The notes below the pieces were generated by a model that worked only from the letters and a program-made list of their open reading frames with translations, ran no database searches and had not been told where the DNA came from. The position numbers and the translations under genes are program-made. Positions 5,075 through 61,207 of a stretch of 64,000 nt of DNA are shown piece after piece. The DNA lies in contig QPGO01000031.1 of assembly GCA_008632985.1 (NCBI GenBank), forward strand, positions 248,001 to 312,000. Reading direction: 5' to 3'. Source of the stretch: Psammoneis japonica. Lineage: Eukaryota. Position 1 is the stretch's first letter, and each line of letters opens with the position of its first letter.

Positions 5075-5159
5075 ACTCACATCACGCACCTGTTACCTTC
5101 CGTCTGAAAGTCGACCGCCGCCAGTCTTGCATCTCTGCTGCCCCGGGCACCGTCGTAAA

Positions 5160-25939: not shown

Positions 25940-26179
25940 AAGACGTGCTCAAGTGTTGCTGGGGTTGGGAATGGATAAAGTTTTGGGATTGCGTAATAAC
26001 TCAGCGTCACTTAGCTTTGCGTTTTATCCCACACATTGTTTAAGCTAAGTTCACGGGAACTGTTGAATGATCTCCCCCTCTGTTGTGCCCCACCTCAATC
26101 CAGGGACGAAGCCTGTCTTCCGCAACCTCTCTCCATTTTCAATTTTCGACCCACAAATTCCATGCTATAGGGTGATTAC

Positions 26180-27278: not shown

Positions 27279-27526
27279 TTAACAAGGGGAACACAGTCTT
27301 GAAGCTTGGGCTGACGGACAGACGAAATAGAAATGCGGACGTCGTCAGTCCCGCCTACGATTAGTCCCGAATGCCAAAACTGCACAGACGCGAGATTCGA
27401 GATTCGAGATTCGAGATTTGCATTCCGATCGCACCATGACCGTCACCGTGACAGCTCTCGAAGCGTCGGAAATTCAGCGCAACACCACAGCCGCATTTCT
27501 TTGATTTCTTAAATCGAAATCCAGGC

Positions 27527-30991: not shown

Positions 30992-32671
30992 CCGTCCCGT
31001 TACACCCAAAATTCTACCCAAGTAGTATTTTTCTACTGGAAAGTGGAATTCTCGTATGTAGAACTGTCAACACGGTGTTGGTATCTTCTAAAAAGATCTA
31101 CCGTACATCCACTGTTTATTCCACTCAGGTAGAAGGCACAGTAGAATTTTCGGAGCCAAAAATTCTACCCTGCGCGCCCCTTTCGCGCGATCTAAACCGT
31201 CTGTCCTTAGTGAGGTGGGGTGCGACGGTATGAACAAAAAAATACTGAAAGTTCTACTCGTCTCAATGCGGCATCTCAACCATGAGCGTCGCCGAGTACA
31301 ACCCCAGCAAATGTGCCAATGCCAACTTCATATATTTTGGCATGGAAAGCAGCACTCACAGGTGTCCTGAGTAGAGCCTAAACATTCGTGCCACTTGTGG
31401 CGAAAACAGACGGATGACTTGCACCACTTCTAACTTTGACAAGCTCTAAAGCACCTATTTGAGATTGTTATTGTGAGTTCTATGTTTAAATGGTACTAAA
31501 CAATTGCATTAGACAAAAGAATTGTCAGCATCTCATCGCACTTCCGCCAGCTTGACAAGAAAACAAGCTGCTCCCCAGCGCTGAATGCACGACCAAAGGT
31601 TGCAACCGTTGACATTTCTAGATTGTTCCACATCCCCGGCTTGAGATGCATTTTTTAATAACTATTTGGTCCGTAATGACCTTGGTACTTTTGCTGCAAT
31701 GGGTGCTGAGTGGACCTGTGAGCGACGACGAGACCGGAGAAACAGTGAGGAGCAAACTCTGCCACACTTAAAAATCATCAAACGCCCAAAACATGAGATG
31801 TGTACAACAAACAAACATTACCATCACATTTTCGACACTATCATTAGCAAATTTTGTTGTTCTTACCTTTGCAGTCCGAAGCCGAGCTTGATTATGAATG
31901 CTGCTGTGTCAGACGCGGCAGTCCTGTCAGTGTCCTCTCTGGGAGCAAAAGTCGCGAAACACCCAAGAGGTGAGGAGCAGCAACAAATCCACTGCAAGTA
32001 TCTTTTTTTCCATAGTCATATTAGTCCATAGCGGTGTTCATGCCGTCGTTGCAATGGGTGCCGGGTAGACCTGTGAGCGACCACAAAACAATAGAAAAAG
32101 TGAGAGAAAAGCTGTGCCCCAGAAAAAAGCATCAAACGCCCAAAAGACGGGCTTTGTGATGAATACAAACACAGCCATAAGATTTTGAATAGTTCCTTTA
32201 GCGAGTATTGGAATCTCACCTTTGTCCTTAAATTACCGAGTAGAAATATCGACGCTACTGTTACCGACGCGGTGGCGCCACGTGTTTCCTCTCTTGCAGC
32301 AAAAGTCATCAAACACCCAAAAGGCAAGGGTAAGCAAAAAATCCAAAGCAAGCATCTTTTTTTTCATAGTCTCATTAGTCAATATTGGTGTTCATACCTT
32401 TGCTGTAATGGGTACCGAGTAGGACTACGGGCGTTCAAAGGCCATGGTCAAGGTGACGGCACGGTGTTTTTCGGTGTTTTTTGAGCGTCGCTCGCTTCGT
32501 CTTGGAGTTTTTTTTCGGCTTCGCAACTCCTCGCGTGTGGTTTGCGTAGGTTGATTACTAGCACGTAGCTTCTATACTGATGGCTACGGCTTGGTCTTCT
32601 TCCCCGTAGGATGAGTACTAATCTCTACAGGGTAGAACTGAGGGTAGATTTTTTTGGATGTATTGGCCCGG
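30992..32671. mobile_element. Putative non-autonomous DNA transposon with imperfect TIRs and TA flanks
   Basis: Left end ta|ccgtcccgttacacccaaaattctaccc versus right end reverse-complemented ta|ccgggccaatacatccaaaaaaatctaccc. Subterminal TCTACC/GGTAGA repeats at both ends. No credible ORF. Confidence 0.4.
31640..32435. repeat. Diverged tandem array, 177-bp monomer with ~355-bp dimer periodicity
   Basis: The (atc/gcg)aaac(g/a)cccaa anchor occurs at 31777, 31954, 32131 and 32308. tg(c/t)aatgggt occurs at about 31695, 32050 and 32404. Confidence 0.8.
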
Positions 32672-39479: not shown

Positions 39480-40800
39480 GAGGAGGGGAGAAGCGAAGAT
39501 CGGCAGCAACAACAAGCGGTTGGCGAGTGCGACAAAAAGACGAAAAATCGAAAAAATCAAAATCAAAATGACCGGAAAAAGCGCGGGAAGACCTTTTGAC
39601 GGACGTCGGACGGTCAGTCAGTGCCATTCGCGCGCGGCGCGCACAAAAAATGTTCGTGGCATCAGAGTCAGGTTTGCCAAATGCATGGTGAGGGGTGGGA
39701 GTCGACCTCATCTTGAGTGGGCGCGAATCATGGAAAATTTTAGTGAGTGGAGGAGAGTGCATCGGAAGGGTGTGCAGAAGATGTGGGGGTGCGTGGGAGG
39801 GGCCACATCACAATGTCACAAGAATTTGGCAAATGGCGGGTGTCATGACTCAGAGATGACATCAAGGGGGCTCAGGTCATCAGGGGAGCACGCAAGCGAA
39901 GAAAGAGGAAGTTTGAATTTTTGTCACATTTTGCAAAAAATGAGAAGTCACAAGGAGTGTATTTTTGTGAGCGAGATCTGGCTCGAAACACGTGTGTGCC
40001 TTGCTTGCACACGAGCATGCCACCCAACATGATGAGAGCTTTCGGGATGATCGCACTGAGAGCCTGCCACAAGCCAGAGGTGGGGTGCAACAAAAAATGA
40101 CAATGAGGAAGCCCGGATTGTGCTTTTCCCTTTTTGCATGTGGCAAGACCTGCAAACTCTGCTGCAATTCACATGCTCCAGCCCTTGGCCAGTTTCTTGG
40201 CCTTGTGTCCGGACTCACCCGGGGATTGTCAACAGCCACCACACATGATCCATTCCCAAACCTTCCACCCAAATTGCGTTGTGGCCTTCCCCTTCTGTCA
40301 GAAAGACACATTTGGCCTTGGTTGGCAAGTTGAGATCTGTCACCATCACTTTCAAAAAGTTCTTTGGCTGACACCACAAGCGCGCTTCTCCTCAGCAACG
40401 TGCTCACCAGAGCATCTCTCGTCACCCCATTTGCTCATGAGACAACAAGTGACAGGGGAAGAGCCCATCTGACTGCTGATGGGAGAGGAGGAGCCACCAC
40501 TCAGGAATCTGTGCAGCAGACCAACGGAGACTTCATTGTCAAGACAGCTGGTGATCACAATTGTTGCGATGCAATGGTTGCTTCATTCTTGGCATTTCGT
40601 GACAAGGTCTGACAAACAAATGATTCAAAAAGTGAGCTGGCCAGCAGCTGGATGGAGGGATGAGTGAGAGGAGTTTCACTGGCAGTTGCATCTTGCCTGC
40701 GTCACCCACCATTGTGTGGTGGGTGGCCTTCCTTCGCGGTCCCCGTTGACTCTCTTCTCCCCAAACACCACCAGCTGGCACTGTGGGCAGTGCTGGCAAG
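39480..40800. other. TpA-depleted hypermutated domain 4, directly upstream of UGGT
   Basis: Essentially TA-free (exceptions ttag at 39740 and gtat at 39960). The left edge is CpG-rich. Confidence 0.75.
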
Positions 40801-41071
40801 AGCTTTGTTATCGTTTGAAGCAAGGCTGTGAGTGCAGGTAGCCAGCTGGACCCACTTTGCATGTTTCACCTCAATGCCGTGGCCTGCATCATGCCTCCAA
40901 ACCAAAGGAACCTTCTTCCACCACCTGCTTTCGACAAAGATCTACTTGAAAGTGCTGCCGCATGGATTTTCTTTGCAGGAACTGCTCGCAGTGCAAAGCT
41001 GTAGAGTCAAGATGGGGTTGTCGTTACGGACTTCGCCGACTCATGCAACCCTCGTGCTCGCCGCGTCCAAG

Positions 41072-42599: not shown

Positions 42600-43774
42600 T
42601 TAGTTCTTCTTGTTTTGGTTGTCCTCCTCTCTTTGAGTTTGTTCATCGAGAATTTCCTTTAGCAACTCTGCCGTGGGAAGCAAACTTTTCACTCGGCTCG
42701 AAACAAACGGCATTTTGTCTGGCTCCTGACCAGCCAGGGAGCTCGCACCTGCACACACAATGGCAGACAAGGACGCAAAGAACAAGATGTTGCTGGCATT
42801 TGCCACGACATCCACGGGCATCTGCTGACCCATCAACTGTGAGGCTCCGGAGACGAGCAGCGAAATGACACCGGGAATAAAGAGAGCAATGTCGAGGTAA
42901 ATGGCTTGGAGCATGTTGAATCGAACAAGCCGGTTGATGCGGGGAGAACACCCGACAAGAAAGTCAGTGACAAGGCGGCAATGAACCCACTCAGCGGAAT
43001 GGAGCGGCACACAAAATACGTCGCCACAATCAATTGTGTGATTGGATTGTTTGGATTGTTCAACACCAGAAAACTGGCGCAGGGAAGTGCACCAAGGAGA
43101 GGAAACATGCAGGGCAGCACTGACAAAACCTTGTCCAAGTTGGTGGGAGGCTTGTGTTCAAAATGTCAGCAATCTTGTTGCATGCTTCCTGTTCCCATTT
43201 AGCATTCGCTTGCAGTTCAAGGGATTGCTTCTTTTCCTCATGGGCAAATTCTGCCAGCACCGTCTTGAACCGTTCAACTCCGACAAATTCTTCCAATTGC
43301 AACTTGCCGTCACCAGATGCGTCAAATTTTTGCATCAATTGTTCAACGCGATCCTGGGGCAAGTCGGTCTTGAGTTGCCATTCGAGTCCGGCCTTGAGTT
43401 CCAATGGGGAAATTTTCCCGTCATTGTCGTGATCAAACTCAGCAAACACCCGTTCGGCCGCTTCCGCAGCCTCCTGGGAACGTTCTGCCTCCAGCGCGGC
43501 AGCTTCGGCGCGGCATTTGGCAGCCATGGCGCGGAGGCGCTCCACATCCACGTCGCCAGCGTTTTTCTCCGCACCACTTGGATTCTTGTTGATGCCATCT
43601 TGGACCATTTCTTGGGTGGTGTCTTTGCCTCCTAAAGCCCACAGTCGAGTTGATGGTTGGTTGGTGTACGAAATTGTTGGCAATTTCGCGTTTGAAAGAG
43701 GCTTGGGCGCGGCAAAGGCACTTGTCGAAACAAGCTGAGAGGTTGCAAAGAGAAAGAGAACAAGATTGCTTCAT
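42600..43774 (-). pseudogene. EF-hand plus Tic20-like plastid import protein, frameshifted, with Tyr->Cys changes
   Basis: Presequence ...VSTSA-FAAP, EF hands (DHDNDGKISPLE, DASGDGKLQLEE) and Tic20-like DKVLSVLPCMFPL...INRLVRFNMLQAIYLDIALF...GQEPDKMPFVS. At least 2-3 frame breaks. Confidence 0.85.
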
Positions 43775-44619
43775 CTAAAGAGCATTGTGTTGACCTGGGT
43801 GAAAAATCAAAAATTGTGAAAGGATTTTGAATCTTCGAGAACAGACGCTTTTTTCTGAAGAGTTCGAAAGAAATCTTGAGATTGTCCGCAGAGCCAGCGC
43901 TCTGCTGCCTGCTGACATGGATGCAAACACACCCATTCTTGCTTGTTGCATGTTTGTGGCTTCTGGACTTGCGCATGCATGGGGCGGGGCAGGCAGGATT
44001 CTTTGAACGAAGAGTTCGAAAGAACTTGCTGACGTGGATGCGAGTGCTTTCCTGCACGTCTGGATTTGTCTCTCGCAACATGGGAAACATCTGTGATTTG
44101 TGTGCAGAAAAGGCCTTCTTCATGGACAGGAGGCTGGAGAGCATCGCATTTGGCACAAAGCAAAACTTTTGTGTGCTGCATTTCTGTGCACATGAAGTTT
44201 CACATCTGACAACACTGAGGTGACAGTTGCACACCCCAGCTCGCTCAAATCCACAGAGGCCAGCGGCACTTTCGTGACAATGTGGCATGTGCCAGCATTG
44301 CCAGCACTTTCCCACCACAGCCACATCACATCACTTTTTCTTAAAGTGGCAATGTGCTGGATGAGCTTTGATGGAAAATGCAAGAAAATAGAGAGTGGCC
44401 TGACTGGCTTGATCTGCACAGGAGTTTTGTTCTCTGCTTGCGCTTGAGGTGCGCCACGGCAGCTCGAAAACAACATCAACAACAATGGCAATGTTGGCAC
44501 TGGGAAAACTTGGGTGCAAAGCAGCCACATTGATGGCATTTCCAGAGCTCTGCTGCTTGTGACAGAAAAAATGTGTTGAAGCACACATGAGGCAGAGCTG
44601 AGAGTGTGGCGGCTGCAGG

Positions 44620-45230
44620 ATGATGGCGGCGCACTGGTGGCTGGCTGGAGCTGCCCAGTGAAAACTTGTTCTGGTGGCTTTGTTTCTGTGAGTGTGAGAG
44701 TGGCCTGTGCCATGCAGTTAAAACACCCATGGTGCATGGCAGTTGGAGCCTTTTTGCCACTGGTGCTCATGGTGTTTTTGGAGCCTTGTTGCTGCACCTG
44801 AGATTGCAGCAGTTGGAGCGCTGGTGCTGCTGCTGCCAGCAGTGATGGGGTTGGAGCCTTTGTGCTGCTGATCCTTGCACTGGCAGCAGTTCTCAATGCC
44901 TTTGTGCTGCCAGCACCAATGGCAGTTGAAGCTTTTTTGCTGGTGGTGGTGGGGTGTTGGAGGTGGTGGTGGCGGTGGTGGCAGCTGGAGCCTTTGCACT
45001 GCTGGCACCAGTGCTGGTGGCAGCAATCAGCAACTCTTTGCACCACTCTGGAGCTGGTGGTGGTTGGAGCCTTTGTGCTGCTGGAAAGCTGGTGTGTGGT
45101 GGCTGGAACCTCTTTGCAATGCAGGTGGCATCAGAGCCTTTGTGCTGCTTGCGCACTTGTGGCAGTTGGAGCCTTCTTTCTTAAGCTGTTGATCAGTTGG
45201 AGCCCCCATGCTGCTGGTGCGGGCACTGGC
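44620..45230 (-). repeat. Degenerate tandem repeat encoding (S/T)STKAPT(A/T)-type mucin-like units
   Basis: Many copies of g(c/g)(a/t)g(t/c)tggagcctttgtgctgctgg on the + strand. The minus strand reads STKAPT-like units. Confidence 0.65.
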
Positions 45231-46504
45231 ACAATGTGATGTGCTCAAGGACCCTGATGGTGCCTGAGTGAATCAGAACTTGCATCTTAACCACCACAGC
45301 CACCTTGTCATTTTAGAGCTCTTCTCAAGTTGTTCAAAAAAGTCAACAAACTCACTTGACTTGTGAAACCAGAGAGCTGGGCGCACAACAGTTCCCTGTT
45401 CTTTGTTGTCATGATGATGAAGTGTGCAAACAGTGATTTTGAACAAGCTGCTTGCCACTTGGTTGCTGCCACAATCAACTTGCCTTAACATTGCTGACTT
45501 TGACAGAAAAAATGCACAAGCAAAGTTGTCTCTCTCATCTGTGATGCAGCCACTCAAGGCTTGAGAATCTTCAAAACCAGAGAGGCAAGTCACCTGCTTC
45601 TGCTGACTTTTTGGAAAACCTTGCCATTGTTTTTCAAACCTCAAGTGTGCTGAATTCTTTGGCTGTCTTTTTGACAATCATCTCACTGAGACTCTCAAGC
45701 CAAAGAAGTTTGACAGCTTGACAACTGCCCATGCCAGTGCTGCCTCTGCAATGATCTCTTCACTTCTCTCTTTTGGTTAAAGACTGAATGTTGTTTGCCA
45801 TTGTCAAGTGATGAGAGTGGTCTGGCATGATCCCAAGAAACATGTCACCTCCTCTTTTGTTGCCAGCATGACTTGCATGTTTCAATTGTGGTGGCCCTCA
45901 TTCCATGACCAAAGGTGTGCCAAGCATGTTGTCAAAGAGGCTCTTGTGTGCACAATGACAGAACAACAACAAACAGCAATTGCAGCGTCAGCACTGAGGA
46001 CCACATTTGCCATCATTCACAAGACCCCACAAGCACTGGCATGCTGTGGCCAAAGCAGCTGGTGGTGCTCAAATTGCTCAAGCTCTTTCACCTGCCTCAG
46101 CTCTTGCACCAGCTTCAACTAAAATTTCTGAGCACAAACTTGGACTTTTGCTGCTTTCAACCTGGGCTCCAAGCTCACATTGTGAGGCATGCCATCACAC
46201 ACATGAGCATCACTTGGAGACTGCTGCCATGTCAAGCACAACAGCCCATGAAGACATCCACCTCAATCCTTTCTTCACACAAGAACTTGGTGTTGTGAGT
46301 GTTGTGTGCCAGTGCTGGACCTCACTTCCATTGCTTGCTGAACTAGATTGTCACAAGAAATGGCACTTGAAACAATGCAGATGGAACTCAGCAAATCAAG
46401 ATGTTGAGCCAAACCTCCAAAACCCCAGAAGATTGGGCTTTTGCTTGCATTGATGCCAAACAAAGAAAAGAAAAAGAGGTGTGTGTGGCCCAATCAAGCA
46501 TTGG

Positions 46505-46768
46505 TTGCTGCACCCACACACCTTCAGGGATGTGTGACATGTTGCATGGCATGCCTTGGACAACTTTGTCAATTCTCTTGATCTGCTTTAGAGACCATTT
46601 TTGTTCTGGTGGGAGAAGTGAGTTCATCACCATTTTTTGTTGCTGCACCTGCACACCCTCAGAGATTTGTGACATGTTGCACCACATGTCTTGGATAATT
46701 TTGTCCATTCTGTTGATCCACTTTAGAGACAATTCTTGTTCCAATGAAAAAAGTGAGTTCATCACCAC
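46505..46768. repeat. 135-bp tandem duplication (45-codon repeat on the minus strand)
   Basis: ttgctgcacc...aagtgagttcatcacca at about 46505-46633 and 46640-46768. Confidence 0.85.
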
Positions 46769-49009
46769 TGGGTTTGCTCCTGATGATTCCATGGCATGTG
46801 TGAGCACAAGGAACTTGATCACAAATCAACCCTGGATGATGTGTGACACACAGTTTGAAACTCTTTTTTAGACAAAATTGTGAAATGCATCATCAATGTG
46901 CTTGGTCATCTGAGGTGCTGCATGCTTGTGACAAGAAACACCCACACTTTCCGCGCACACTGGTTTCCAAATGGTCTGACTGCAGCCATTGTTTCAAGTC
47001 ATTGTGGAAGAGCTGCTGCTGTGTCAAGAGCTGCTGCCATTCATGCATTTGTGCCAGAGGATCCATTGTGGCTTCTTGCTGGTGTGCCACCAAAGCTGAC
47101 AAAGACATCAGATGACCTTCAACATCTTGAAAGCAAACAATGTCAAGCACTTTCATCCAGTTGCCAATTGATGTGCCTGTGGCAATCAGCACTGGTGCCT
47201 CATCCTTGCTTGCTCCAGCACATTGCAGTGACTTTGCTGGTCCTCTGGAACCTGCTGAATTGACCATGACAACTGTCATTGGCTCATCACAGATGAAACA
47301 TGTTTGTTGGTGCATTTCATGCACCAACAAGGTTGTGTGCCAGAGTGAGATTTCATTGCCTGGTGCTTGCTGGAAGAACACCATCTGTTCCATCCAAACC
47401 AAGGCTGTGCACCTGGTGGTTCTGTTTGCCTGTTCAGCCATCTGCAGGCCCATTTTGATGACAATGACAGCCAGATGGCACCAAGTGCTTGGCATGTGGC
47501 AACAAAGCCACCCCTGCTCTCAACTGAAAATGCACTTAAGTTTCCACATAAAAAAGCAACTTGCTGCTCATGTCACATTTGTGCCAAAGCTTGTTTGCAC
47601 TGCAAAATGCCTTGGTGTGTCCCCTTCTTGTTTGTCACTTCTCAGACCAGTCAAAACCTTGCACCAGGTCAGAAGAAGAAGGTTTTGCTGCTTTGTCAGA
47701 AGCTTGGGCACACCAATTTTCAACACACATCTGTTGGCTCTGTCACACATGCCTTGAGATCCCACCAAGTCTTGTTTCCTCTCAAACCCCAAACAGCAGC
47801 TGTGGTTGGTTGCACAGCATGCCTTTGAGCGCTGCACAATGACTTTTTAAGACAAGGTGCTGTTCTCCCAGCTGTTGCAGCAGTTCTAAACTGCTGCCAC
47901 CAACCACAGACAGAGATTTGGCATGCCCAGTCAGTGTGCCTCAGTTGGTCAGTGCATCATCAGCCACATCCCCAGCCATCTTTTGCCAACAAGCAAGGGA
48001 CAAAAACTCAAGAAGAAAGAGAGCAGTGGCAGCACAATTTTTGTTGGCCATGCTTCCAACTGTGTGTTCCTGACCTGTCAAGAGTTGGTCTCACCACAGA
48101 AAAAGCCAATTGTGCTGGGCACACTTTTGAGCAACAACTCAGTGACTGGCTTGGCATGTGCTGTGTGAGTCAAGACATGTCAAGTTGACAAAATGCCCCT
48201 TTTTCTGAAGCTTTTGTGCAAAATCAAGAAGACAAAAGACTTCTTTGGTGTTGGTGCCCATCACCCAAATGGCACTGCAAAGCAAGCAACTTAAAGTGTC
48301 ACTTCCTGCTGAGCACAAGTCAGTGTGCCAGCACTGCACACTGTCCTCATGCAGCCAAGACTGTGCAAATTTGGGAATGCCCCTTTTTTGTGACCTGTGC
48401 AGTCCATCTTTGGAGTCACCCACCAAAAGCTTCAAACCATGGCAGTCAAGATCTTTTCACAGCTGTGCACACCTCTGTGCAGCACCCGCACACATGGGAT
48501 CAACCTGCCTGTGTTTTGGCAGATCCCAAACTGCACCACAACAGGAGAAACCCAACAAACAGGATTCCAAGAAAGCTGCTGTGGCAAGCAAGTGGCTGCC
48601 CTGGCATGCCCCTCTCTCATTCCACCACTGTTGGTCTTGTTCCAAATTTGGCAGGTTCCACATGGCTGGTCCATGACAGCCATTTCACAGCAGCAGCCAC
48701 TCAACAGCAAATCTGATGTTTTTAAAACATTTCAAAAACAGACACCTTTTCTGCCAACATTTGGGAAATTCTGTCAGCCACTGATTCAGCAGCAAAAACC
48801 ATGCTCTTGACTCCCAGCCCTCTAAAGACCCATGCTGCTGCTGTCCTTGGATGATGCCCAAAGAATGCTGCCACACCACACAATGACCCCCCACACCAGG
48901 GGGGGCATCCACAGCACCACCACCTGCAGCACACGACCATCACCAGGAATGATGCCTGGGTCACCTCTTCTGCCACAGCTTCTGCACCAATTCTGTTTGT
49001 TCCTTTGAG

Positions 49010-49025
49010 TGAGACAGAGAGAGAG

Positions 49026-49061
<36 letters not shown>
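49010..49061. repeat. Compound (GA)n(CAG)n microsatellite
   Basis: Read directly from the sequence. Confidence 0.9.
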
Positions 49062-49062
<1 letters not shown>

Positions 49063-51211
49063 AAATCCAAAATGCTCTGTTGAGTTAGAGAAGCACACTG
49101 TGATCAGGCAACGGTCATTTGTTCTCATTGCATTGCAGCAGGAAAGCATTGCTGAAGCACTCAGATCAAAGAACTCATGCACAACCAGCATGAATGTCTT
49201 CCACAAACATGCAAAGTGAAAACACAGCACACTCAAAGAGGTGCACTGACTGGCCTTTGCAGTTCCTGGAGCCAGTTCTGCAAAGTCAATCCAACCTGGC
49301 AGGAAAGTGCAATCAGAGTGGCCCTGTTTGCTTGGCACATGCCAAGCCTGTCACATCGAAAAATGTCCCCTTCCTTGTCAATGGCAAAGATGCTCAGGAG
49401 GAAGCAGGCTTTTTAATGTTGGATGAGTGGTGCGTGCTTCCCGCTTGCTTGTGCATCTCCAAGTGCAACCCGCACCTTGCGTGCTGCACCAAATTCTGGC
49501 ACTTTTCACAAAGCAAGCTCAATCACATCACTGCTTTTTTGAATCCTCCCATTGACAAGGAGGATCCCAAATGGGGTGCAGGGATGCCCAAAGAGAGGAG
49601 CACAAATGCTCTCTGGTGCACATTCACAATGCTGTGAGGAGCTGCTCTAAACCTGCCAAAGAGCCAAAAACTCATGAAGACTGTGTGTGGTCTCAAAGAA
49701 GAACCCAACAGTTTTTTGTCCACCTGAAGTCAAAGTCAGAAGAGGATGCTGAAATCCACTCTCAAGAAGACGATGCTGGTCTGTGCCTCTTTGTCTGGTG
49801 ACAAAGTGGTCTGCTTGGTGCACATCAATGAGAAACACACTTTTTTGGCCAGGGAAGGGTGCATCAAAAAGGAGGTGATCAAAAAACTCAAATTGACAAA
49901 GGTTTGTCATTTGCTGAAGCAAATGATTCTGTTGCAGGTTTTTTGGGCACTGCACATTGAGGTTTTGCAACACCAATGGTGCAATCATGCTGCGCCAGAG
50001 CAGTCTGGCTGATTGTGCTGTGCAGATGCTTTCAAGGCAGGCAACTTGTCAAAGGTGGCCTGAACATCTGCACAAGCTGCTCTTTTGGTCAAAGATGAAA
50101 AGGGAGATCCCCCTTGATTAAAGCCTTCAACAACGTCAATGTGTTTTTGGCACATGTGATGTGTTCTGGGATCTCCAAGGTCACACCTCCTCTCCAGGCC
50201 CAAGCATGTCACCTGTGCAGTCAGCTCAGGAGCAGCCAGAGTTGTGCACAGTCTGCTTCAGTCAACACCTCAAGGGTGCCCTCAATGAAGGTTTGATCCT
50301 CTTAAAGACATCAGGAGAGACTTCAATGTGTGTTTGTGTTTTCTTCTTGAGCTCAAATGTTGCTGGATTGTGGCTGGTTTAAGACAAGCAAGACCTGACC
50401 TGTGTAAAAAGCCATGCAGGGTTTGAAATCTGCACTTTAAACTGTCCTGTCATTTGTTCAAGCAAGCTTGCACCTGACACAGCCTTGTCCACCATGATGG
50501 AAGCACAGAGTGCAGTGTGCTTGTGCACCACTCTCATTTCCGCTTGTTGCATGAAAGCTGCTCTCCCCCTTCACAAAAAACACACAAGCCATTTTGCAAG
50601 GTGTTTGAATTGGTCTGGGTGTCCCTGAGGCCATCAAAACCATGGCATGGGATGACAATGTTGGATCTTTGTCCCTGGCCAACGTGGGACCTGGTCAAAT
50701 CACGATGGGGTCATCCAAGCACTTAGAACATCAAGCACCACAAGATTTGTGTTGTTCGCTGCTGAAACCAAATGGAGTTGTTGCATCTAAGATTACAACA
50801 GACATGCAGTGCACCATCATTTTCACCGAGGGACTCGGGATTGTCAAGTTCGAGTCCATTCGCAAGTTGCTTTGCGGCATTGCTGGCTTCTTCGTTCGAG
50901 AGGCAGTGTCGCAACAACATCACGCCATTACCAGCATGCGTTTGAAGTTTCGCGCCTTCGCACTTGAAGCCTTCTTTTGCGCTTCTGCTCTCTATCTCAT
51001 CACCTAGCATGTAATCAACATTAGCAGCAACTACAAGTGTCTATCAACACTGTCTATTGTCACTGACTCTATTGTTAGTGATGCTGTTTCGTATATTCGA
51101 CCGACAGTCGAATCTCATCGCTCTCAGCCGACAGTCATCGCAACAGGTGGCCGCTTTAAAACATTTCATATCGTTTCTGGCTGATAGTTGTGGCATGAAC
51201 GAACGAAACAT

Positions 51212-52156
51212 TCACATTTGATCCTCCACCTTTGCTCCTTCCTCCTCCAGCCGCATATACTTCTCTCGAAACGCCTCCCAGGCTGGAAATTGTACTCGTT
51301 TCCGCACCCGCTCTCGTCTTCTCTTTGCGTAATACTCGTCAATCTTGCTGTACATCATCGGAACAACCACAGTGAATGCCACAACTGAGACAACATGCTC
51401 AGCCAACCAATTGCCCACTACCATGAGTGGTCCAAGCCAAGGAAGATTTCGCATATCATGTCCCACCAAAATGACATTAACAGTTTTTTGCAACAGCTGA
51501 ATAAGTCGACTTGTCAAGAACGGTACCAAGGATACCAGTACAGCCCAATAGATAAAGACACGACTGGTAATGCGGGTACAAGAGAGAATGGCAATATCCT
51601 CAAACTCTTCTATTCCAATTCTCCCTTTTGTCTTCGAGGTTGCTATGTCAAAGAGCTCGTCGACCTGCGTGCGATTAAGTGGTTGGCAGGCCGCAATTCC
51701 AATGTACTTTGCCAAATGCAGATGAACGAGAAGGATCCCAGTGTACAAGTCTTTGCGTGATATTTGCCCGTTCTGATCGGTGTCGCACTTGGAAAAGGCC
51801 CATTGGATCAATCCACGAAAGGCTTTACTGTTGGTCCATCGTCGTCGCTTCCTACGCGAAAAAATCAATGAACTCCGTTTCGGCTGAGTATCATTGTTCT
51901 TCAAGCCGTGTTCAATCACTGGTCGGAGCATATGATACAAGCGAACCATACGTGACAACTTATTGACGCCTGTTTCCACCGTCTCTGGTTCGACCTTTTC
52001 AGAAGGCTCGTTGGAAAGAAAGATTGCCGGTGGACTACTTGCTCCAAAACAGGCTCTGGGAGCCGAAAAGGATGAAACTCTCGGCGCGAGAGACGCTGCC
52101 ATTCCGATGCAACAAGCCATCCGCATCACCCACAGCATACCCAGATGATGCTTCAT
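51212..52156 (-). CDS. EF-hand-containing membrane protein with N-terminal signal/transit-like peptide
   Basis: AFSKCDTDQNGQISRKDLY EF loop, a second degenerate loop and C-terminal TM helices. Confidence 0.75.
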   Translation of the reverse strand: MKHHLGMLWVMRMACCIGMAASLAPRVSSFSAPRACFGASSPPAIFLSNEPSEKVEPETVETGVNKLSRMVRLYHMLRPVIEHGLKNNDTQPKRSSLIFSRRKRRRWTNSKAFRGLIQWAFSKCDTDQNGQISRKDLYTGILLVHLHLAKYIGIAACQPLNRTQVDELFDIATSKTKGRIGIEEFEDIAILSCTRITSRVFIYWAVLVSLVPFLTSRLIQLLQKTVNVILVGHDMRNLPWLGPLMVVGNWLAEHVVSVVAFTVVVPMMYSKIDEYYAKRRRERVRKRVQFPAWEAFREKYMRLEEEGAKVEDQM

Positions 52157-52798
52157 GCTGGACCATCACTGGGCATCCAACAGTGTGGACGGTGCTCCCG
52201 CAGGCGGCGGTCGGCGGTGGGCGAAATTTCAGGACGGGTTGGCGCGCATCAGCAGTTATGAGGCTACGACTAGCACAATGTGCAAAATAGACTATTACAA
52301 ACTGAATACTTTGTATTTAAATATATAGTAAATGTCTGAATGATTGGTATGTAAAATGACTGCACATGACTCCTGCTGTAGAATTTGTACCAGTCTACGT
52401 ATTTATTGCTCTACAAACTGAAGCCCTATAGAAATGTCTGGTGTTAAGTAAATTCAAATGTCGGAGCCGCCAAAATGGACCGAAACGCCGGCCACGTCTT
52501 TTAATAAAACATGCGATCTTGGTTATTGATTATGAAGCAGTCGGAGTTGAAACAGTAATATCAAAATTAATTTGAGTCTTAATTTGAATAGGAAACATTT
52601 AAAAAATCTTCTAATTGTGTTACAAATATCGATTTTTGACTACAAATTGTATGGGTTACATCTGTAAAAATGCCCTAATTATTTGCTAAAAGCCGTTATC
52701 GTTAAATATCGATGTACAAAAAATGCGATACGGGTGTTCAGGACGTTTTTTACAGTTCACATTGTGCTAGTCGTAACTCCATAGCCCCACTCCCAGCG

Positions 52799-53437
52799 CG
52801 AACCATGCAGTGGTTCGCCGCGCGAAATCACGGATGCGCGCGACTGTTGCCCCGAACCATCACGTGGTTCGCTGCACGCCAAAAACGACCCGATACACAA
52901 TGGTTAAAAAGGTAGAAGGTAAAGAGACATCTATAATAACTTTGCATCAGTCGATACAGCAAAGTCTATTTGACAATATGTATGCTTTATTTTAGTGGTT
53001 TACTACGTTCTTAAAAGTCTCCGTACTACTGCCGTCTTGTTCATCGTCGAACCACATTTTTCTGGTGAATTTTGGCATTTGACCCGCTGGTACAAATTAC
53101 ACGTAGATTTCTACGCACGTCCTCCCGAACCACATCATGGTTCGACAATTCTACGGGGTTCTTGGTACTTATCTACGCAGCGAACCATTGAGTGGTTCGA
53201 TAATATCTTCTGGTACTGTTCTACGGTGGTTTCTACGGGGTGATAAAATCACCGCCAACGACCATGACGGTGATTTGACGGCGACCGTGCTTCATACACG
53301 AGTGGTTGCTGACAACATAATGCATTGGTAACGATGGCTTTTTGACTCTATTAAAAGGTTATATATGTGTAGGTACTACTTTATCGTGTCAGTCGCGAGT
53401 TTCACGTTGCGCAAGTTGCGAACCACTGAGTGGTTCG
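52799..53437. repeat. Five copies of the palindrome CGAACCA-N5-TGGTTCG
   Basis: Starts at 52799, 52853, 53126, 53181 and 53419. Arms are identical and the 5-nt spacers vary. Confidence 0.9.
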
Positions 53438-54035
53438 ACATTTTGCCCGAGTGGGGCCAGCAATCCGGCATCGATCGCACCGAGTCGGTCCTCTCCGTTG
53501 TGTGTTGTGTGAGCCAATCAGAGATGATGGTCATCCGTCGGCGCTTTTTCAATGACATTCTCATGGTTGTGACAACCTCACCCAGAGGTTTCTGGTTGGT
53601 CCACTGTGACCATGGTGGCTTTTTGCCATTGTCCACACTGCAGATCTTCAGTGAAGGTGCACTGGACAGCTCGGGTTCAAAGTCCCCACTTGTTTCCCTT
53701 CTCTGCAGCTTCTTGTGAGGGCCTGAGGGCCTGCTTGTCATGGTGCCAGCATGGCTGTCAACACATGACAACATGCATTGGACCAGTGTCATTGCCCTGG
53801 CTGTGCTCAGCCAGTTGTGTTGCTGTCCTCAATGCCTTGTGTGTGTGAGAGAGAGAGGTCTCTTGAAAAAAAAAAAAAAAACCACGATGTCATTGTCAGG
53901 CACAACAGACAATGGCCAAACTCTTCAGTGTGGAGAGACAAAGCTGCACAGCACATCTGAGAACAGAGGCAAGAGTGCAGTGGGTGGCAAGCTCATTTTT
54001 GTTGCAAGAAACACACAAAGCCCAAGGAGGTGCAA

Positions 54036-54280
54036 TGACAGAAAATGAAGATGACTGGGTGGAAGAAAACAACAACTCCTTGCTGCTGTCTAAACAGCAG
54101 ATGAGTCTCCGTGCAGAGACCATTGCAGGAGCCGAAAGACTGGTGTCGTGATGTCGGTGCTGCTGTTGTTGTTCTTGGGAGCCGAGTGGCTTGAAAGCAA
54201 ACTGCATCGCGTGACGCGCACGGAACCAAGAGCACACACAATTGTGTGTGACAAACTAAAATCTTGTTCAAATCCTGTCA
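54036..54280 (-). repeat. 3' LTR
   Basis: Direct repeat of 58577-58821, preceded on the minus strand by a purine tract at 54281-54286. Confidence 0.95.
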
Positions 54281-54282
54281 CT

Positions 54283-57200
54283 CCCCAGTTTGCTTGAGGG
54301 GTCAACAGTGACAGATTCAAAGTCAGATTGGTTGAAAGCCTTGGGATCGAAGCTCCAAAACATTAGAGGATGAAGGAGGTTCCAGATTTGGGAGTGACCC
54401 CAATGCTTGCTGAGGATGTCAGCCGGGTTGAGGGAGCCTTCGACAAAATGAAACTCAAGGAAACCGGAGGCAATCGCCTCATGCACATGATGGAATGAGA
54501 GGGTGGTGTGTCGCTTGTGTGACTTGGAGTGTGGGATGGCAGCACTGTCCACAACCGACTTGTTGTTTTCCAGGAAGATCATCATTCGCAGGCCACGGAG
54601 AGACACTGCTCCGGAATGGACACTGTCGACGGGCACGTCTGTGAGGTGTCCATTGGCAACAAGCCTTGCTTTGTGCCGTCCGTCATGTTTGACGTCACAG
54701 ATGAGATGCACCTGGATCTTCTTGTGTCCTGATGGAGCGCTGGAATCGTTGTGGTGTCCGCAGTCGTGGAAGACCTCGCACTCATCAAGCTGAGTCATCT
54801 CGAGGTCCGTTGCATCTCCCCACTTGCGGTTGCCATTGCGCTCATCAAGGGCCATGGCATGCCTGCAGTCCCGCAGCACTTCATGCTCGCACTTGCATCA
54901 TGGCGCAGTGCAAAAGGAGTGACTTGTCTTGGTTGGCCATGCGGAGCAGCCTCTTCTGACAAAGGGCCATCTTGCAAAAGCGTCTCCATCCTTTGGTTTC
55001 TAGAAGGCCGTGCTCACACGGGCAGACAGCACAGGTGACGGGGTCATCCTTGGCAATGATGGCAAGGGGTTCGGATGCAATCTCCCCACTCTCCCATTCA
55101 AGCATGACGTTGTAGCTATCATGGGGTTGCAATGGTCCTTCGTGCGATGCGATGCATCGGAACTTCCAAAGGGTGGTGTCCTCATCTTCTTGCTCAATGT
55201 GGTGCATGATGTCATTGTAGGCTGGGACTTCAGAAGAAGCCATCTTGCAAAAGCATCTCCATCCTTTGGTTTCTAGAAGGCCGTGCTCACGGGCACAGAC
55301 AGCACAGGTGACGGGGTCATCCTTGGCAATGATGGCAAGGGGTTCGGACGTGATCTCCCCATTCTCCCATTCGAGCATGACGTTGCAGCTTGAGTCTTTC
55401 CAAGAGGGATCATGGGGTCACAATGGTCCTTCGTGGAACTTCCAGAGGGTGGTGTCCTCGTCTTCTTGCTTGATGTGGTGCATGATGTCATTGTGGGCCA
55501 GGACTTCCTCGTGTTCGTCATTGTTGATGGAGCAAATGAACTTGGCCAGTTCAGGATTGTCTCCGATTTTCCAGTTGTGGTCCTCAACGACTTTGACAAT
55601 GCGGGCTCTGTGGCGTTGTCCATCCTCTTGTGGCTTCATGAGGAAGGTGCATCCTGTGACATCCTCAGGGTCAAAGACCGGCATTTTGGGCATCCTGATC
55701 GCCTCCCCATCTGGTGAATCTGGCAAATCCTTGGAGTCGTGGCGGGATTTAATGACAGGTTCAGCAGATTTCTTGACAGGAGGATCAAGATGCAGGTTTG
55801 GAGCAGACGGATCATGGGCGGAGCGCACGTTGGAATGGCAGAGAATCTTCTGAGTGTCGTCAGAAAGAATCTTGAACGTCATTTGGTGACCAACGTGCTT
55901 GGCGATGTGCGGGAGGCTGGCTTTGATGTCAATGGGAATGACGCATCCATCAACAGTGGTGACATGCTGTGGACCGTCAGGGACCTTGATGGACCGATCG
56001 TTGACATTGTGTTTGTGCCACTCGAGCTGGCCGCAAGAGTGCATCGTCTTCCCCTTTTCAGTGTGGGCGCACTGGTGAAGGATGGCAATGGCAGGGCCGC
56101 GTTGCGTGTGGATGACACCACCGGCAGTGACAATGGGAATGTCTGCCAGTTGATGATCATCAACACCTTGGACGTCAATGTCATTGGGCTTCGCGTCGGA
56201 GCGGACGGAAGGTGCAGATCCAGGTGGTTTCTCGCCAGAATGGGCAGAAGGAGGCCGTTCAGGTGCCAGGAGACATTGCAAGTCGCCGGGTGGCAGGGGC
56301 TTGTGCCTGGTGAGATGAGCCAGAATGGGGTTGGTGTCGGCTGCATCGGCTGCAGCATCGGATTGTGCGAAGGCTGATGCAAGATCGTGAGTGTTGGCGG
56401 ACAAGTTGACATCGCCATTGCTGCCAATGCGGAGGTCGTGCAGGTTGACCACCGTCAAGTCATGGCAGTTGCTGGTGTGGGCAGTGCGCGAGCCAAGAAT
56501 GATGACCTTGGTGGACTGGGGCAAGGTGTCCCAAATTCGCTGATGGTCCGGCCGGAATGTGACGCCATTGTTCCTTGGTGAGGGAATTGCCACGAGTTTG
56601 CACAGCATGAGCTTGGATGACGTCAACATCACTGTCAATGTCAAAGAATGCATTGTCATCAGGGTCGTCAGGGACCAGGTCATGTTCGTAGATGGCACGG
56701 TGCGGAGCGCGAGGAGCCGTCTTGGACTGTGCTGCAGCAGAAAGCAGAAGTCCACAGTGCTCTTCACAAGAGAGCCCCTTTCCATTCTGCGTGCGGAGCT
56801 GATCAGCTTGATTCTTTACCAAATGGAGTTCTTCGACAGGATGAATGGCGTTCTCAAGCATGACATGTTTCTGGCCAGCAGAGAAATGGCCCGCACCCGG
56901 GACAAGAGCTTCACACTTGCGGAGCTGGTCCTGCCAGTGAAGTGTGAAGGCATGGGTGGATCCCTTCCAGGTGCCATCACCAAGGCGAGCAGTGGTGAGG
57001 TGCGTGAGAAGGGTCGAGGACTCCAGGGATGCGTGAGTGGAAGTGAGGGCACACTTGGAAAGGTCGCGATGCACCGCTTGAGCATCAGAGGAGCTGACAT
57101 GTTGACAAACAAGCGCCTTGCCTTTGTCATTCTGCAAGATCCGTTCAAATGCAGCGAACATGCACTTCTGTTGTTCATCAAACAGGGCCTTGTCCTCAGC

Positions 57201-57764
57201 TGTGGAGGGCTTGTGCTTCGGATCAAGAATGAGTTCGACGTCCTGGGAGCGGGCCTGTGCAATGATGGAGGTGTGCCACGTGTGCCACTGTTTGTCTGAC
57301 TTGAGAGTCACGAAGGTGAGTGGGTCACGTTTGATGCCTCGTTTTAAGTCACATGCAGGGTCACATGGTTTGGGTGGCAAAGAGCCAGGGGTGGGAGCAG
57401 ATGGCGCTGCACCCATGGAGAGGGATGCTGCATGCTCAGGACTAAGACGACAGTCAGTGAACTCCTCGTGAGTGAACAATTGAGGGTTGTTGCTGACATC
57501 CACGCTGCCGCGCGCTTTTGCCGTGCACAGGCCAATCAGCGCAGCCATCTGTGCTTTGTAACCACGTGACAAGGGCATCTGATTGGTGCCATTGTTGCAC
57601 ACAAGGGCATCCAGTTGCGTTGGAGTAAAAGCAAAAAGGTCCTGACAAGAATCGGTTCCATCAATGTTGAGAGCGGAGTGCAATGGACTGTCTGTGGCTT
57701 GATTCAGAACAGTGCCTAGAACATGCTTGAGTCCATTGATTTGTTGTTGCCTGGTGAGAACCAT
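54283..57764 (-). pseudogene. Decayed gag-pol of the copia element
   Basis: Gag ORF 57764-56460, a partial protease region (IPIVTAGGVIHTQRGPAIAILHQ), the post-integrase region, and the RT N-terminus fused to the RNase H C-terminus. Frameshifts are present. Confidence 0.9.
54966..55507. repeat. Internal ~270-bp tandem duplication in pol
   Basis: 54966-55231 versus 55239-55507 (both encode NDIMHHI...EWE.GEI.SEPLAIIAKDDPVTCAVC). Confidence 0.9.
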
Positions 57765-58576
57765 GTTGCAACTGGGTGGATGTCGGAACTGGCTGGAGTC
57801 GGAGGGTGAGCTTGAAACAACTTGAAACTTGACTTGAGTCTTGACTTGATGTCTTGAACTATCTCAAGAGTCAGAAGCCACCGGGCTGTGATGTCCCATT
57901 CACAGTCAAGTGCCAAGCTTCCCATCTGGTCCACAGAGTTGTGCTGGCATGTCCAAACCCGCAGCTGGTGATGCTTTGGGTTGCCTGAGAGCAGAGTGAT
58001 GGGTTAAAAACCCCTGCTGACAAGCCAACCAGAGGTGGACAAGACCTCCGAACCATTCTTGTTTTATGTCAGTTGGATGACCTGATCAGGCCGGCCAAAT
58101 TTGGCACTGTGGAGGGATGAACAAATGTGGGAAATGCACCCTCGCCCCAATGCAGGCTGTGATCATGAACTGCTTCCTCTCACAGTTGTCCTCGTGGACC
58201 TTGTAGAACTGCTGAGGACCAGCAATCTGGTGCAGGCTACAAGGCGGCAGACTTGGCATGTGCAGAGCAGGGCCAGAGTCAGGGTTTACATTGTGTGCTT
58301 GTGGATGCAAGCGGATGGATTGGCAGGATCCACTGCAAGGAATCTGGAATCTTGGATGTCTGAGAATTTGGGAATTCCTGGCCAAACAAACATCCGTTGA
58401 ACAAACACATCCAATGATGGGAGTTGTTGGACAAATCCAAATGTGTGGATTTAATCCAGCATCCAGCAGTGAAGAAGGCAGACACATGCTTCCACCGCCA
58501 ACGGTGCGCATCGTTGAAAATTTCTCGATGATGATGATGAACGCTCAACGGACAACAAAGAGCAAGACTGTCAATC

Positions 58577-58821
58577 TGACAGAAAATGAAGATGACTGGG
58601 TGGAAGAAAACAATGACTCCTTGCTGCTGTCTAAATGGCAGATGAGTCTCCGTGCAGAGACCGTCACAGGAGCCGAAAGACTGGTGTTGTGACATCGGCA
58701 CTGCTGTTGTCATTCTTGTGAGCCGAGTGGCTCGAAAGCAAACTACATCGCGTGACGTGCATGGAACCAAGAGCACACACAATCATGTGTGATGAACTAA
58801 AATCTTGTTCAAATCCTGTCA
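58577..58821 (-). repeat. 5' LTR
   Basis: Direct repeat of 54036-54280, same length (245 bp). Confidence 0.95.
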
Positions 58822-61207
58822 TGCAAACACAGTTTCTTTTTTGCACACAAGCTCGCCAGCTGTTGCAGCCAAAGCGCATGCTTGTTGTGATTCATTGCAA
58901 CAACAGGTGCCAAGCTCAACCTGGAAGCCATGGCACTTGCTGTGCACAAAGCACTGACAAGCAAGTGAAAGCTCCGCTAATTTCAAGCATTGCCGCCAGT
59001 GACAACAGTGCACATTCTTGCAACAAAAATGCACAGACCGGGTTCCACAACTTTTGCAAAAAGTGTTTGATCTTGCAAGCAAACACAACTGTCCTTTGAT
59101 GTTGCCATTTTTGTCAGACAAAATGGCTTTCAAGCTGAAAAAAAGATTGACATGAAGCTTTTGCTGACCAAACATCCACACCATGAAGTGCTCATGAACA
59201 ACCACATGTTTTTTTGGCAGAATCACATCAAGCCTGTCTCTTGGAGGTGGAGGTTAAAGAGATGCCTTGAAAGGCATGGCATCATGGCTTTCCTCAGGAC
59301 CATGGCATTGCTGGACTTTGCTCTTCATGACACTCCATGTGAGAGCATTTTTTCACAATTAAAGAGAGCTGTGTTCAAGCCTTGGCAGCCAAAGTGGTTG
59401 AGGCAACATCAAAGCAAATCTGGCACACTTGTGAGTTTGACATTTTGTTCAAATCAACCTTCTGGCATTCCCACTCAAAGCAGCCACTGTTCACAAGCTC
59501 AAACGGAGCCAAAGCCAGCAGCAATCTGATTTGAAGTGCAGCATGCATCATGGCCAAAAATTTGTGCCAACACCACAGTGTTGATTTTGCAGAGTGCAAT
59601 CACAAATTTTTATTTTCCTGTGATGAGAAATGGCTTTTGTTCACACCAGCTAACACAAGATTTGCTCTGCATTGGCTCATCCCAGGGAATTGTTTTTGTT
59701 GAGTTTTTTGTCATTTGCACAGTCAGTGCCTTGGCATGTGACACATGGGCTCTTCCAACTCACCCTCATTTTGTGACCACCAAGCTGGAGACTGTGTTAA
59801 AACCAAAGCATGACAGCAGCCTTTGTTGTTTTTGTTGTTGGTGCAGTGACTTCTCTTGTCCAGCCACCGGCCACCACCTGTGCTGCTTGTTTTTGTCATG
59901 TTTTCCATGAGGGGGCTGTGCTTTGTGCAGCAACTCATGAAGCTTTTGAAGAGTTTGAGTGGTTGATGACACAGACCAGTAAATTGCTCATCACCGTTGC
60001 AGAGTGCAATGATTCAGAGAGCTTCAAGAAGGATGAAGGCTGCAAAAAGAGCTCTGTTCCCTTGGTGGAGTGTTGCACTTGCCTCTCTAAACAACTGTTG
60101 TCATTTGCCTCTCCCCTCCAGAGCACCAATTTTGTTGCTGGCACAATGCCAAGAAAACCCACCTGGTGCCAGAGTTAATCTTGGGGGCACATTAGATGCT
60201 GACTTTGTTGCATCCAAATTGACAGGTGCAGCAATTGCCCACATGGACTCTCCCAACAGCACAGTCATCTGCAACAAACCTGGGCAGTTTGCTGCTTCTG
60301 TTCAACAATCAATTTGTGTGGAAGTTTTCTGCAGAACAAGATGTGATTCACTGGTGTGTGCAGGCCTTGGAAGAAGTCTTTATGCTTGCTCTGTGAGGTG
60401 TGGCATTGATGTGAAACAAAAATGTGACAGCAAGAGTGGGCCAGCATTGTGTGCCCATTTTGATGTGATGCCCAGTCCCTTGATTTTGAGGCAAAGATTG
60501 ACACCCAAAGACCAACGATGCACCAAATGCTGCATGTGTGGCAGTTGCAAGTGGAACAACAAGGAACTGTTGCAAGTGCAACAAAGCTCTTGCAGTCCAC
60601 AAGAAGACATGGCCAAAGATCCATTGCAACACAATGCTGTTCAGTTTGAGCATGTGGAATGTGTTGCTGCGAGAGTTTGTGTTGCAGAAACTCACATCTC
60701 ATCTTGGGTGAAGAGGAGGCAAAGTTCATTTGGAAAGGCTTCTGTGGCATTTGTTCTGGCAAGAGGCAAGGGCCCCACGTTAACTTGGTGCTGTGTTTTC
60801 TAGCACCACCTGTTTCTGCTTTACGGTTTCGGTGCGGGGTCTCTTACGAGTCCTGAAGGCGAGGGCGTGCGATGCACAGGATGAGGCTGCGAAAACGAAA
60901 AGGTCGATACGATTGTCGCGAAATTGAAGAAACGTCAACAGATGCGAGTTGATCGAGCCAAGGTCAGAATGGCTGAGAGCACGCTGGAATCATTAAAAGC
61001 GCTTCACCAAAAGGCTGACATGATTGTGGAGCATCTGCAACTTGAAACTCCCGACTCTTCCACATTGGAGCATTAGCACCCATCATTTTGCGAGGTTTAT
61101 CTGAGTTTTCATATGGTAGTCAGCTTACTCTTATGCCAGTCGAGAGCCCCGGCATGCATGCCTGTTTTTGCAGTTATCATAGCGCATTTCATAATCTGCA
61201 TGGTATA

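Follow-up and report, generated by a model that had tools for sequence, protein, structure and literature searches.

A dead copia-type retrotransposon of the diatom Psammoneis japonica carries the signature of mutation at TpA dinucleotides after integration

What could have turned so many tyrosine (Tyr) residues into cysteine (Cys) and histidine (His) in a single retrotransposon? The question is raised by an element at positions 54036-58821, minus strand, of a 64,000-nucleotide stretch of the diatom Psammoneis japonica genome (assembly GCA_008632985.1, contig QPGO01000031.1, positions 248,001 to 312,000 of the forward strand; hereafter the window). A first-pass annotation, made from the letters alone, had described these changes as a recoding of Tyr in a copia pol gene. 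Our analysis leads to a different unit of change. Very probably, this is a dead copia-type element whose integrated DNA underwent A:T>G:C mutation specifically at TpA dinucleotides (TA in the counts below), and we infer a targeted enzymatic cause. The direction of the changes, their dinucleotide specificity, their action on both strands, their timing after integration and their restriction to a domain are each demonstrated by comparison of sequences.

Relatives of the element were collected with the reading frame 54268-54897 as query, which gave 503 proteins at E ≤ 1e-3 among proteins of 367-2000 residues. PF07727 (RVT_2) is present in all 120 of the relatives listed (best E 1.5e-67), and the one named relative among them is from the diatom Fistulifera solaris. 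The 53 of these 120 that are at least 1800 amino acids long were aligned into a profile of 1890 columns and served as the outgroup, while a search of protein representatives puts the wider family at 2328 proteins at E ≤ 1e-3. Residue fates were counted as cells, columns within a tandem duplication of the element entering twice.

Counting the fates of Tyr codons against those of other codons over the 53 relatives, as the first-pass annotation had proposed, we found Tyr to be strongly lost, and its replacement by Cys or His spans the whole polyprotein, as had been claimed. At columns at least 90% conserved, Tyr was kept in 2/17 cells (Cys 8, His 6, Trp 1), against 245/293 for the other residues (Fisher p = 9.4e-10); at columns at least 70% conserved, it was kept in 2/24 (Cys 12, His 8, Trp 1, Phe 1), against 357/478 for the others. 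The sole two strongly conserved Tyr residues that survive in the element are encoded by TAC at 55219 and 55114, both in one copy of the duplication (copy A). Among the aligned residues of the element, Tyr makes up 0.36%, Cys 3.4% and His 7.0%, compared with 3.83%, 0.9% and 3.55% in the relatives, and Tyr is the residue most strongly depleted. The two products follow from the fact that every Tyr codon is TAY, which becomes TGY (Cys) or CAY (His), and their numbers (12 Cys and 8 His at the 70% threshold) indicate that both strands were hit. Clustering of strand outcomes along the element, a mark of processivity, was not found (14 runs against 13.3 expected).

The changes are not limited to Tyr. 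The 63 replaced cells at the 90% threshold comprise 20 TA>TG/CA changes, 17 CG>TG/CA changes, 12 transversions, 7 multi-step replacements and 7 transitions of other kinds; the 143 at the 70% threshold comprise 34 of the TA type, 25 of the CG type, 38 transversions, 31 multi-step replacements and 15 transitions of other kinds, and much of the transversion and multi-step group is ordinary family divergence. At this latter threshold, A>G or T>C outside a TA context accounts for only 7 cells, against the 34 of the TA type. Beyond Tyr, the TA-type replacements include Ile to Val or Met, Val to Ala (GCA), Leu to Ser (TCA), Asn to Asp and Thr to Ala. The CG-type replacements are mostly Arg to His, Cys or Gln, and Arg is kept in 15/34 cells at the 70% threshold. 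Where the relatives have Tyr or Arg and the element has Cys or His (34 cells at the same threshold), the ancestral residue was Tyr in 20 and Arg in 14, and CpG decay acting through Arg supplies about 40% of the new Cys and His.

The unit that was hit is evidently the TpA dinucleotide and not the Tyr codon that the first-pass annotation had in view, because TA was also hit where it spans two codons, in the long terminal repeats (LTRs), in the older repeat that surrounds the element and in a nearby gene that is not part of a transposon. With expected dinucleotide counts computed from base composition, the element holds 26 TA against 267 expected (observed/expected 0.10) and 189 CG against 326 (0.58), with CA at 1.64 and TG at 1.57. 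The non-coding LTRs are as depleted as the coding parts, retaining 2 TA (3' LTR, 16 expected) and 3, against 16-17 expected, and so is the flanking older repeat, with 11 TA against 183 over its two sides. Its left part within the depleted domain (53383-54035) has no TA against 39 expected, and its right part (58822-60780) has 11 against 144, together with 11 CG against 103 (0.11). The borders are sharp: the last TA at normal spacing on the left is at 53382, and on the right TA density is back near 60780. Outside the domain TA stands at 0.78 (left) and 0.64 (right) of expectation, and the genic blocks of the window have TA at 0.56-0.58 and CG at 0.94-0.95.

The nesting of the two repeats adds an order of events, as the copia element is inserted in an older repeat from which CG is almost gone, and its own CG still stands at 0.58. 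This nesting is in effect a relative clock, on which TA loss evidently saturates first and CpG loss second. The TA sites that survive are themselves skewed in context. Among 76 of them (53383-60780 and 43001-51000 combined), 32% lie in CTAA/TTAG, compared with 7% of 1241 genic sites, and 30% in TTAA, compared with 5%; purine-TA-pyrimidine (RTAY) occurs at 2/76, compared with 28% of the genic sites, and at 0/26 inside the element. Either TA in such contexts is resistant to the mutator or the sites found today arose anew; a preference of the mutator for certain flanks may lie behind the skew. A further consequence concerns reading frames. The domain has 2.3 TAA and 1.6 TAG per kb of strand, compared with 8.9 and 8.6 in genic DNA, and because these triplets are depleted, long open reading frames (ORFs) are many: the 10 kb between 50000 and 60000 hold 118 of at least 50 amino acids over all six frames.

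By its structure, the locus is recognizably a dead, internally deleted and partly duplicated LTR retrotransposon of the Ty1/copia type, lying within a 7.4-kb TA-depleted repeat domain. Its LTRs are 245-bp direct repeats that begin TGACAG and finish CTGTCA, and the target-site duplication TGCAA is flush with their outer ends and has 5 bp, the usual length for copia. The features are as follows (TSD, target-site duplication; RT, reverse transcriptase).

53383..60780, no strand: TA-depleted domain with sharp edges, comprising the element and the older repeat into which it inserted; 37 TA against 448 expected
54031..54035, no strand: TSD TGCAA, left copy, adjoining the LTR end
54036..54280, minus strand: 3' LTR with TG...CA termini, 245 bp, 90.6% identical to 58577-58821
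54328..54567, minus strand: pol C-terminal tail, profile columns 1807-1886, fused to the RT N-terminus; E 9e-36
54396, minus strand: Tyr to His within that tail
about 54567/54568: deletion junction, columns 1431-1806 (the rest of RVT_2 and downstream) gone
54568..54921, minus strand: start of an RVT_2-type RT, columns 1313-1430; profile match
54897, 54891, 54867, 54780, 54726 and 54618: Tyr to Cys or His in the RT start
54966..55231, minus strand: tandem duplication, copy A; TAC kept at 55219 and 55114
55239..55507, minus strand: tandem duplication, copy B; CAC (55495) and TGC (55387)
55508..55906, minus strand: pol segment upstream of the duplication, columns 1067-1200; profile match
about 55904-55906: deletion junction, columns 688-1066 gone
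55904..56185, minus strand: pol segment, columns 595-687; Tyr to Cys, His and Cys at 56071, 56017 and 55945
56574..57764, minus strand: N-terminal (gag-side) polyprotein, columns 1-411; E 1e-94
58577..58821, minus strand: 5' LTR, repeat pair with 54036-54280
58822..58826, no strand: TSD TGCAA, right copy, adjoining the LTR end

Altogether the element matches profile columns 1-412, 426-543, 595-687, 1067-1298, 1201-1311 (the duplicate), 1313-1430 and 1807-1886, and it is frameshifted in addition to its two large internal deletions. The gag-side part holds seven Tyr to Cys/His replacements at columns at least 70% conserved in the relatives. In two full-length relatives RVT_2 is the sole domain matched in Pfam, at residues 1373-1586, and most of it is lost from the element because columns 1431-1806 are deleted; RVT_2 is also the only match of the element's own ORFs, and because of the same deletion its score stays below threshold (13.3 bits where 31.6 are required, E 0.065). 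A second copy of the family was not found in the window, either by a profile search of all six frames or by self-BLAST.

The LTR pair dates the changes. The two LTRs of such an element are identical at the time of integration, and here they differ at 23 positions, by 22 transitions and 1 transversion. All 22 transitions lie within pyrimidine-purine steps (8 CA-versus-TG doublets, 5 cases of CG versus TG or CA, and 1 of TA versus TG), whereas the two LTRs are identical at all 119 positions that lie outside these steps. With 7 CpG sites shared and 5 lost in one LTR, double CpG hits would give 0.45 discordant doublets, against the 8 observed (P of at least 8 = 2.6e-8); these doublets must therefore stem from ancestral TA sites that became TG in one LTR and CA in the other. 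We estimate about 18 ancestral TA sites per LTR, with 14% survival per LTR, and a TA rate of ~970 times background and ~6.5 times the CpG rate, a rough figure that rests on one background change. Because a pair that was identical at insertion has diverged at TA-derived steps, the TA changes evidently postdate integration.

The tandem duplication, which the first-pass annotation had detected and which is real (~273-276 bp), carries the history further. Tandem Repeats Finder missed this ~273-bp duplication, while repeat finding and MAFFT alignment recovered it; its copies have 20 mismatches (18 of them transitions) over 251 aligned positions, with one 15-bp and one 18-bp indel. The plus-strand sites that had been quoted from it stand as quoted (gttgTAgct with TA at 55113 and gttgCAgct with CA at 55386; ttgTAggc with TA at 55218 and ttgTGggc with TG at 55494), and the one context TTGTAG did yield both products, TG and CA. 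Read as minus-strand codons, copy A has TAC at 55219 and 55114 where copy B has CAC at 55495 and TGC at 55387. At these two sites the intact relatives carry Tyr rather than Cys or His, in 53/53 at column 1207 (55219/55495) and in 49/53 at column 1248 (55114/55387). The proposed direction, from Tyr to Cys or His with TA ancestral, is thus correct, but it is fixed by the 53 relatives and by other genomic copies of the family and not, as had been claimed, by the duplication itself, since two duplicates compared with each other cannot set a direction. The duplication tells us instead that TA losses evidently went on after it arose.

Other columns of the duplication have similar histories. At column 1278, Tyr in 53/53 relatives, both copies have Cys. 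At column 1205, where the relatives have Ile, Met or Leu, one copy has CTG and the other has CCA, and at column 1260 (Thr in 47/53 relatives) a T|G versus C|A difference between the copies lies across a codon boundary. An in-frame TGA at 55420 in copy B, opposite CAA in copy A (column 1237), fits descent from a CGA ancestor rather than from TA.

The first-pass annotation had also named four motifs with positions given as Tyr in diatom copia elements. Three of these agree with the relatives, namely SGHKKI (column 1378, Tyr in 45/53), SVHSG (column 1414, 53/53) and KHWGHSQ (column 1864, 52/53, the second H alone being derived). The fourth, HLICDVKHDG, holds only in part: the column of its C is Tyr in 12/53 relatives but Phe in 41/53, and both of its H residues are His in the relatives. 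The suggestion that the loss of Tyr was an efficient way to inactivate the proteins is not supported; this copy also lacks columns 688-1066 and 1431-1806 and carries frameshifts.

Other copies of the family were examined in a sequencing run (X1) from the one study found to contain this DNA; no RNA data set was listed for it. The run consists of contigs only and is probably the source sample of the window, hence neither an independent strain nor a source of allele frequencies. The summed depth of its contigs over the element ranges from 5e3 to 1.3e5, with a peak over the LTRs, against about 64 over the flanks, and the run shows many LTR-interior joints. In this sample the family is thus present in a highly repeated, rearranged state, although the summed depth is not a copy number. 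Between X1 and the window there are 138 differences, 125 transitions and 13 transversions. Among the best-supported 40 of these 138, CA or TG in the window stands opposite CG in the other copies at 24 sites, and TG or CA in the window stands opposite TA at 7, the remaining 9 being of other kinds. One of the 7 TA sites is 55495, at which 72% of the X1 depth reads A.

The process reaches beyond the retroelement. A gene with EF-hand and Tic20-like similarity, 42603-43740 on the minus strand, lies wholly inside another TA-depleted block and is broken over three reading frames, compared with relatives of about 385 amino acids, the named ones being from the diatoms Fistulifera, Cylindrotheca and Amphora. 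Three of its four conserved Tyr residues have become Cys (TGT at 42755, TGC at 43111 and TGC at 43009), with TAT kept at 43018, and it has no match to transposon protein families in Pfam. That this gene was hit means that the mutation is not limited to retroelements, and TpA mutation seems to have killed what was once a host gene or a duplicate of such a gene. In the block 43001-44000, TA is at 0.08 of expectation while CG is at 0.77. Descent of the EF-hand frame 43060-43770 from the EF-hand gene at 51212-52165, by duplication and hypermutation, was considered and rejected, the two sharing a BLASTP match of E 0.01 over 48 residues and no DNA match.

Taken as a mechanism, these observations describe a chromosomal process acting after integration that turned A:T into G:C at TpA on either strand, giving TpG or CpA, and that removed about 90% of all TA steps. 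A slower decay of CpG to TpG or CpA runs in the same domain, with Arg codons (CGN) becoming His, Cys or Gln as its read-out. The cause would be a targeted enzymatic activity on silenced repeat chromatin. The likeliest candidate is an activity that deaminates adenine at TpA to inosine, or that deaminates a modified adenine there, as has been proposed for the alga Bigelowiella natans.

Several other explanations share part of this ground. The strongest of them, a live alternative that we nevertheless consider unlikely, is that TA loss is a passive by-product of TpA modification or of a repair bias in silenced chromatin, for example through a deamination-prone methylated adenine, with no targeted deaminase involved. 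TpA is self-complementary like CpG, as maintained methylation sites are, the two strands are hit equally, and TA loss and CpG decay share the borders 53383 and 60780, all of which would suit such a process; the block 43001-44000, depleted in TA with most of its CG in place, argues that the two processes are separable, and only 11/15 lines of B. natans showed the process, which the authors of that study read as regulation. Much less probable is an RNA-level origin, in which ADAR-like A-to-I hyperediting of double-stranded RNA from the element was fixed by reverse transcription, so that TA was lost before integration. This is, after all, a retroelement, and A>G beside a 5' T on both strands is the preference of ADAR according to the discussion in the B. 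natans preprint (10.64898/2026.01.13.699255). Yet the LTRs differ almost solely at TA- and CG-derived steps, the tandem copies diverged in the same way, and the flanks beyond the target-site duplication are affected as much as the element, as is the EF-hand/Tic20-like gene. A loss of ~86-90% of sites is also far above one round of editing, and ADAR is a metazoan family.

The two remaining alternatives concern the target and the direction. That Tyr codons themselves were the target, or the selected outcome, of a process inactivating pol is hardly credible even though Tyr is the most depleted residue: the equal loss of TA from non-coding LTRs and flanks contradicts it, TA has gone as well from Ile, Val and Leu codons and from the junctions between codons, the element was already broken by two large deletions, and TA loss takes TAA and TAG triplets away instead of making stops. 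A pairwise comparison of duplicates is, it is true, silent on direction, so that Cys and His (TG and CA) might have been ancestral and copy A might have gained TA by C>T changes at CpA/TpG of the kind seen in repeat-induced point mutation (RIP). We give this reversal practically no credence, as the outgroup refutes it at both test columns, TA is tenfold depleted rather than enriched, and most of the X1 depth from other copies reads A at 55495.

Against TpA-specific mutation of the integrated element by a targeted activity, the explanation that we favor, several points must be set. No de novo mutation has been observed here, and everything is deduced from comparing sequences, unlike the mutation-accumulation experiment reported for B. 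natans. The relatives are ~56-67% identical to the element, so that only conserved columns are informative, and some of the transversion and multi-step replacements are ordinary within-family divergence. The base that precedes a Tyr codon has no effect on whether Cys or His results (Fisher p = 1.0). The estimate of 18 ancestral TA sites exceeds the 16 expected from composition in a 245-bp LTR, and only 8 doublets stand behind it. Finally, 2 of the 7 TA sites in X1 adjoin a second variant, with phase unknown, in what is a set of contigs probably from the source sample.

In the literature searched, the TpA signature has so far been reported in one other alga only, B. natans. There, according to the 2026 bioRxiv preprint by Mettrop et al. 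(10.64898/2026.01.13.699255), two integrated viral regions accounted for 231/302 de novo mutations; 230 of these 231 were A>G or T>C and all 230 were on TpA, at ~6e-7 per site per generation, about 1000 times background, and reverse transcriptase and DDE domains were enriched in TpA-depleted coding sequences. The two cases are alike in the change of TpA to TpG or CpA on either strand, in its limitation to particular foreign or repeat regions (neighboring genes are spared here), in the rate excess (about 1000-fold there, ~970-fold here by the indirect LTR-pair estimate) and in the long-term trace of TpA depletion. They differ in the host, a chlorarachniophyte (Rhizaria) there and a diatom (stramenopile) here, and in the targets, which were measured there in insertions of nucleocytoplasmic large DNA viruses and virophages and comprise here an LTR retrotransposon, the surrounding repeat and the EF-hand/Tic20-like gene. 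CpG decay in the same domains is seen here, and none is reported in the available part of the preprint. Diatoms are not mentioned anywhere in the preprint, a full-text search of the literature gave no description of TpA-specific hypermutation in diatoms, and a look-up of terms in Maumus et al. 2009 (PMC2806351) and in 10.1101/2025.10.24.684338 found no mention of hypermutation, dinucleotide or deamination.

Among established systems, RIP in Neurospora and other ascomycetes (PMC7296669) is the functional analogue, resembling our case in being a transition-only, dinucleotide-specific, sharp-bordered and transposon-killing hypermutation of chromosomal repeats. Its chemistry is the reverse: RIP changes C:G to T:A, mainly at CpA, enriches TpA and makes stops, whereas here A:T becomes G:C and TAA and TAG are erased, and the TpA enrichment of a RIP-type direction was not found, TA standing at 0.10 of expectation. 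RIP also needs RID/DIM-2 and premeiotic repeat recognition. Diatoms have RID-related DNMT4 enzymes, described as being of unknown function (PMC9998398), and we draw no link to them. CpG decay through 5-methylcytosine is present in the same domain and accounts for Arg to His, Cys and Gln, but it can neither give Tyr to Cys or His nor remove TA, and it is ~6.5 times slower in the LTR pair. Editing by ADAR or APOBEC3 is likewise a clustered, transition-only, deaminase-type mutation of retroelements, with a preference of ADAR for a 5' U. These enzymes act on RNA or reverse-transcription intermediates before integration, in contrast to the integrated DNA affected here, and APOBEC gives G>A and not A>G.

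If our explanation is right, diatoms would be the second major algal lineage with a local A:T mutator at TpA, working at ~1000 times background, and its chemistry would be opposite to that of every established genome-defense mutator (RIP, APOBEC and 5-methylcytosine decay). It is a tentative further thought, to which we lean rather less than we lean away, that diatoms possess a dedicated, chromatin-targeted adenine DNA-editing defense, a "reverse RIP", homologous to the process in Bigelowiella and hence ancient across the stramenopile-alveolate-rhizarian group (SAR). Such a defense would act at TpA in silenced repeat domains, by turning adenine into inosine or by deaminating a modified adenine, and would kill transposons through missense changes while erasing TAA and TAG triplets. 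The element itself is an internally controlled snapshot, as its LTR pair, its tandem duplication and the 53 relatives give direction, timing and relative rates. Practical consequences would follow as well: LTR-divergence dating would overestimate the ages of diatom transposons, hypermutated DNA poor in TAA and TAG would yield long spurious ORFs that are a trap for gene callers, and protein searches would miss catalytic Tyr motifs in diatom transposons. Copies of host genes could be destroyed too, as at least one gene without a transposon-protein match lies in a mutated block, the EF-hand/Tic20-like gene.

Elsewhere in the window, TA-depleted blocks lie at 43001-51000, 1-2000, 5001-7000 and 40001-41000, with a weaker one at 26001-27000. 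TA in these further blocks is at 0.04-0.35 of expectation, and in several of them CG is down to 0.02-0.5 and CA/TG reaches as much as 2.1; at 45001-49000 nearly all CG is lost too. The reading frames 43632-44330 and 44120-45130 have no Pfam match. The weaker block (TA 0.35, CG 0.41) contains a 508-bp palindromic inverted repeat, 26780-27282, with 86% identity to its own reverse complement. A 132-bp tandem pair, 82% identical, lies at 46501-46767, a tandem pair of roughly 375 bp, 71% identical, at 31695-32422, and a dispersed 163-bp pair, 75% identical, at 803-965 and 2225-2374. The window also holds a UGGT gene, whose best named matches are from stramenopiles.

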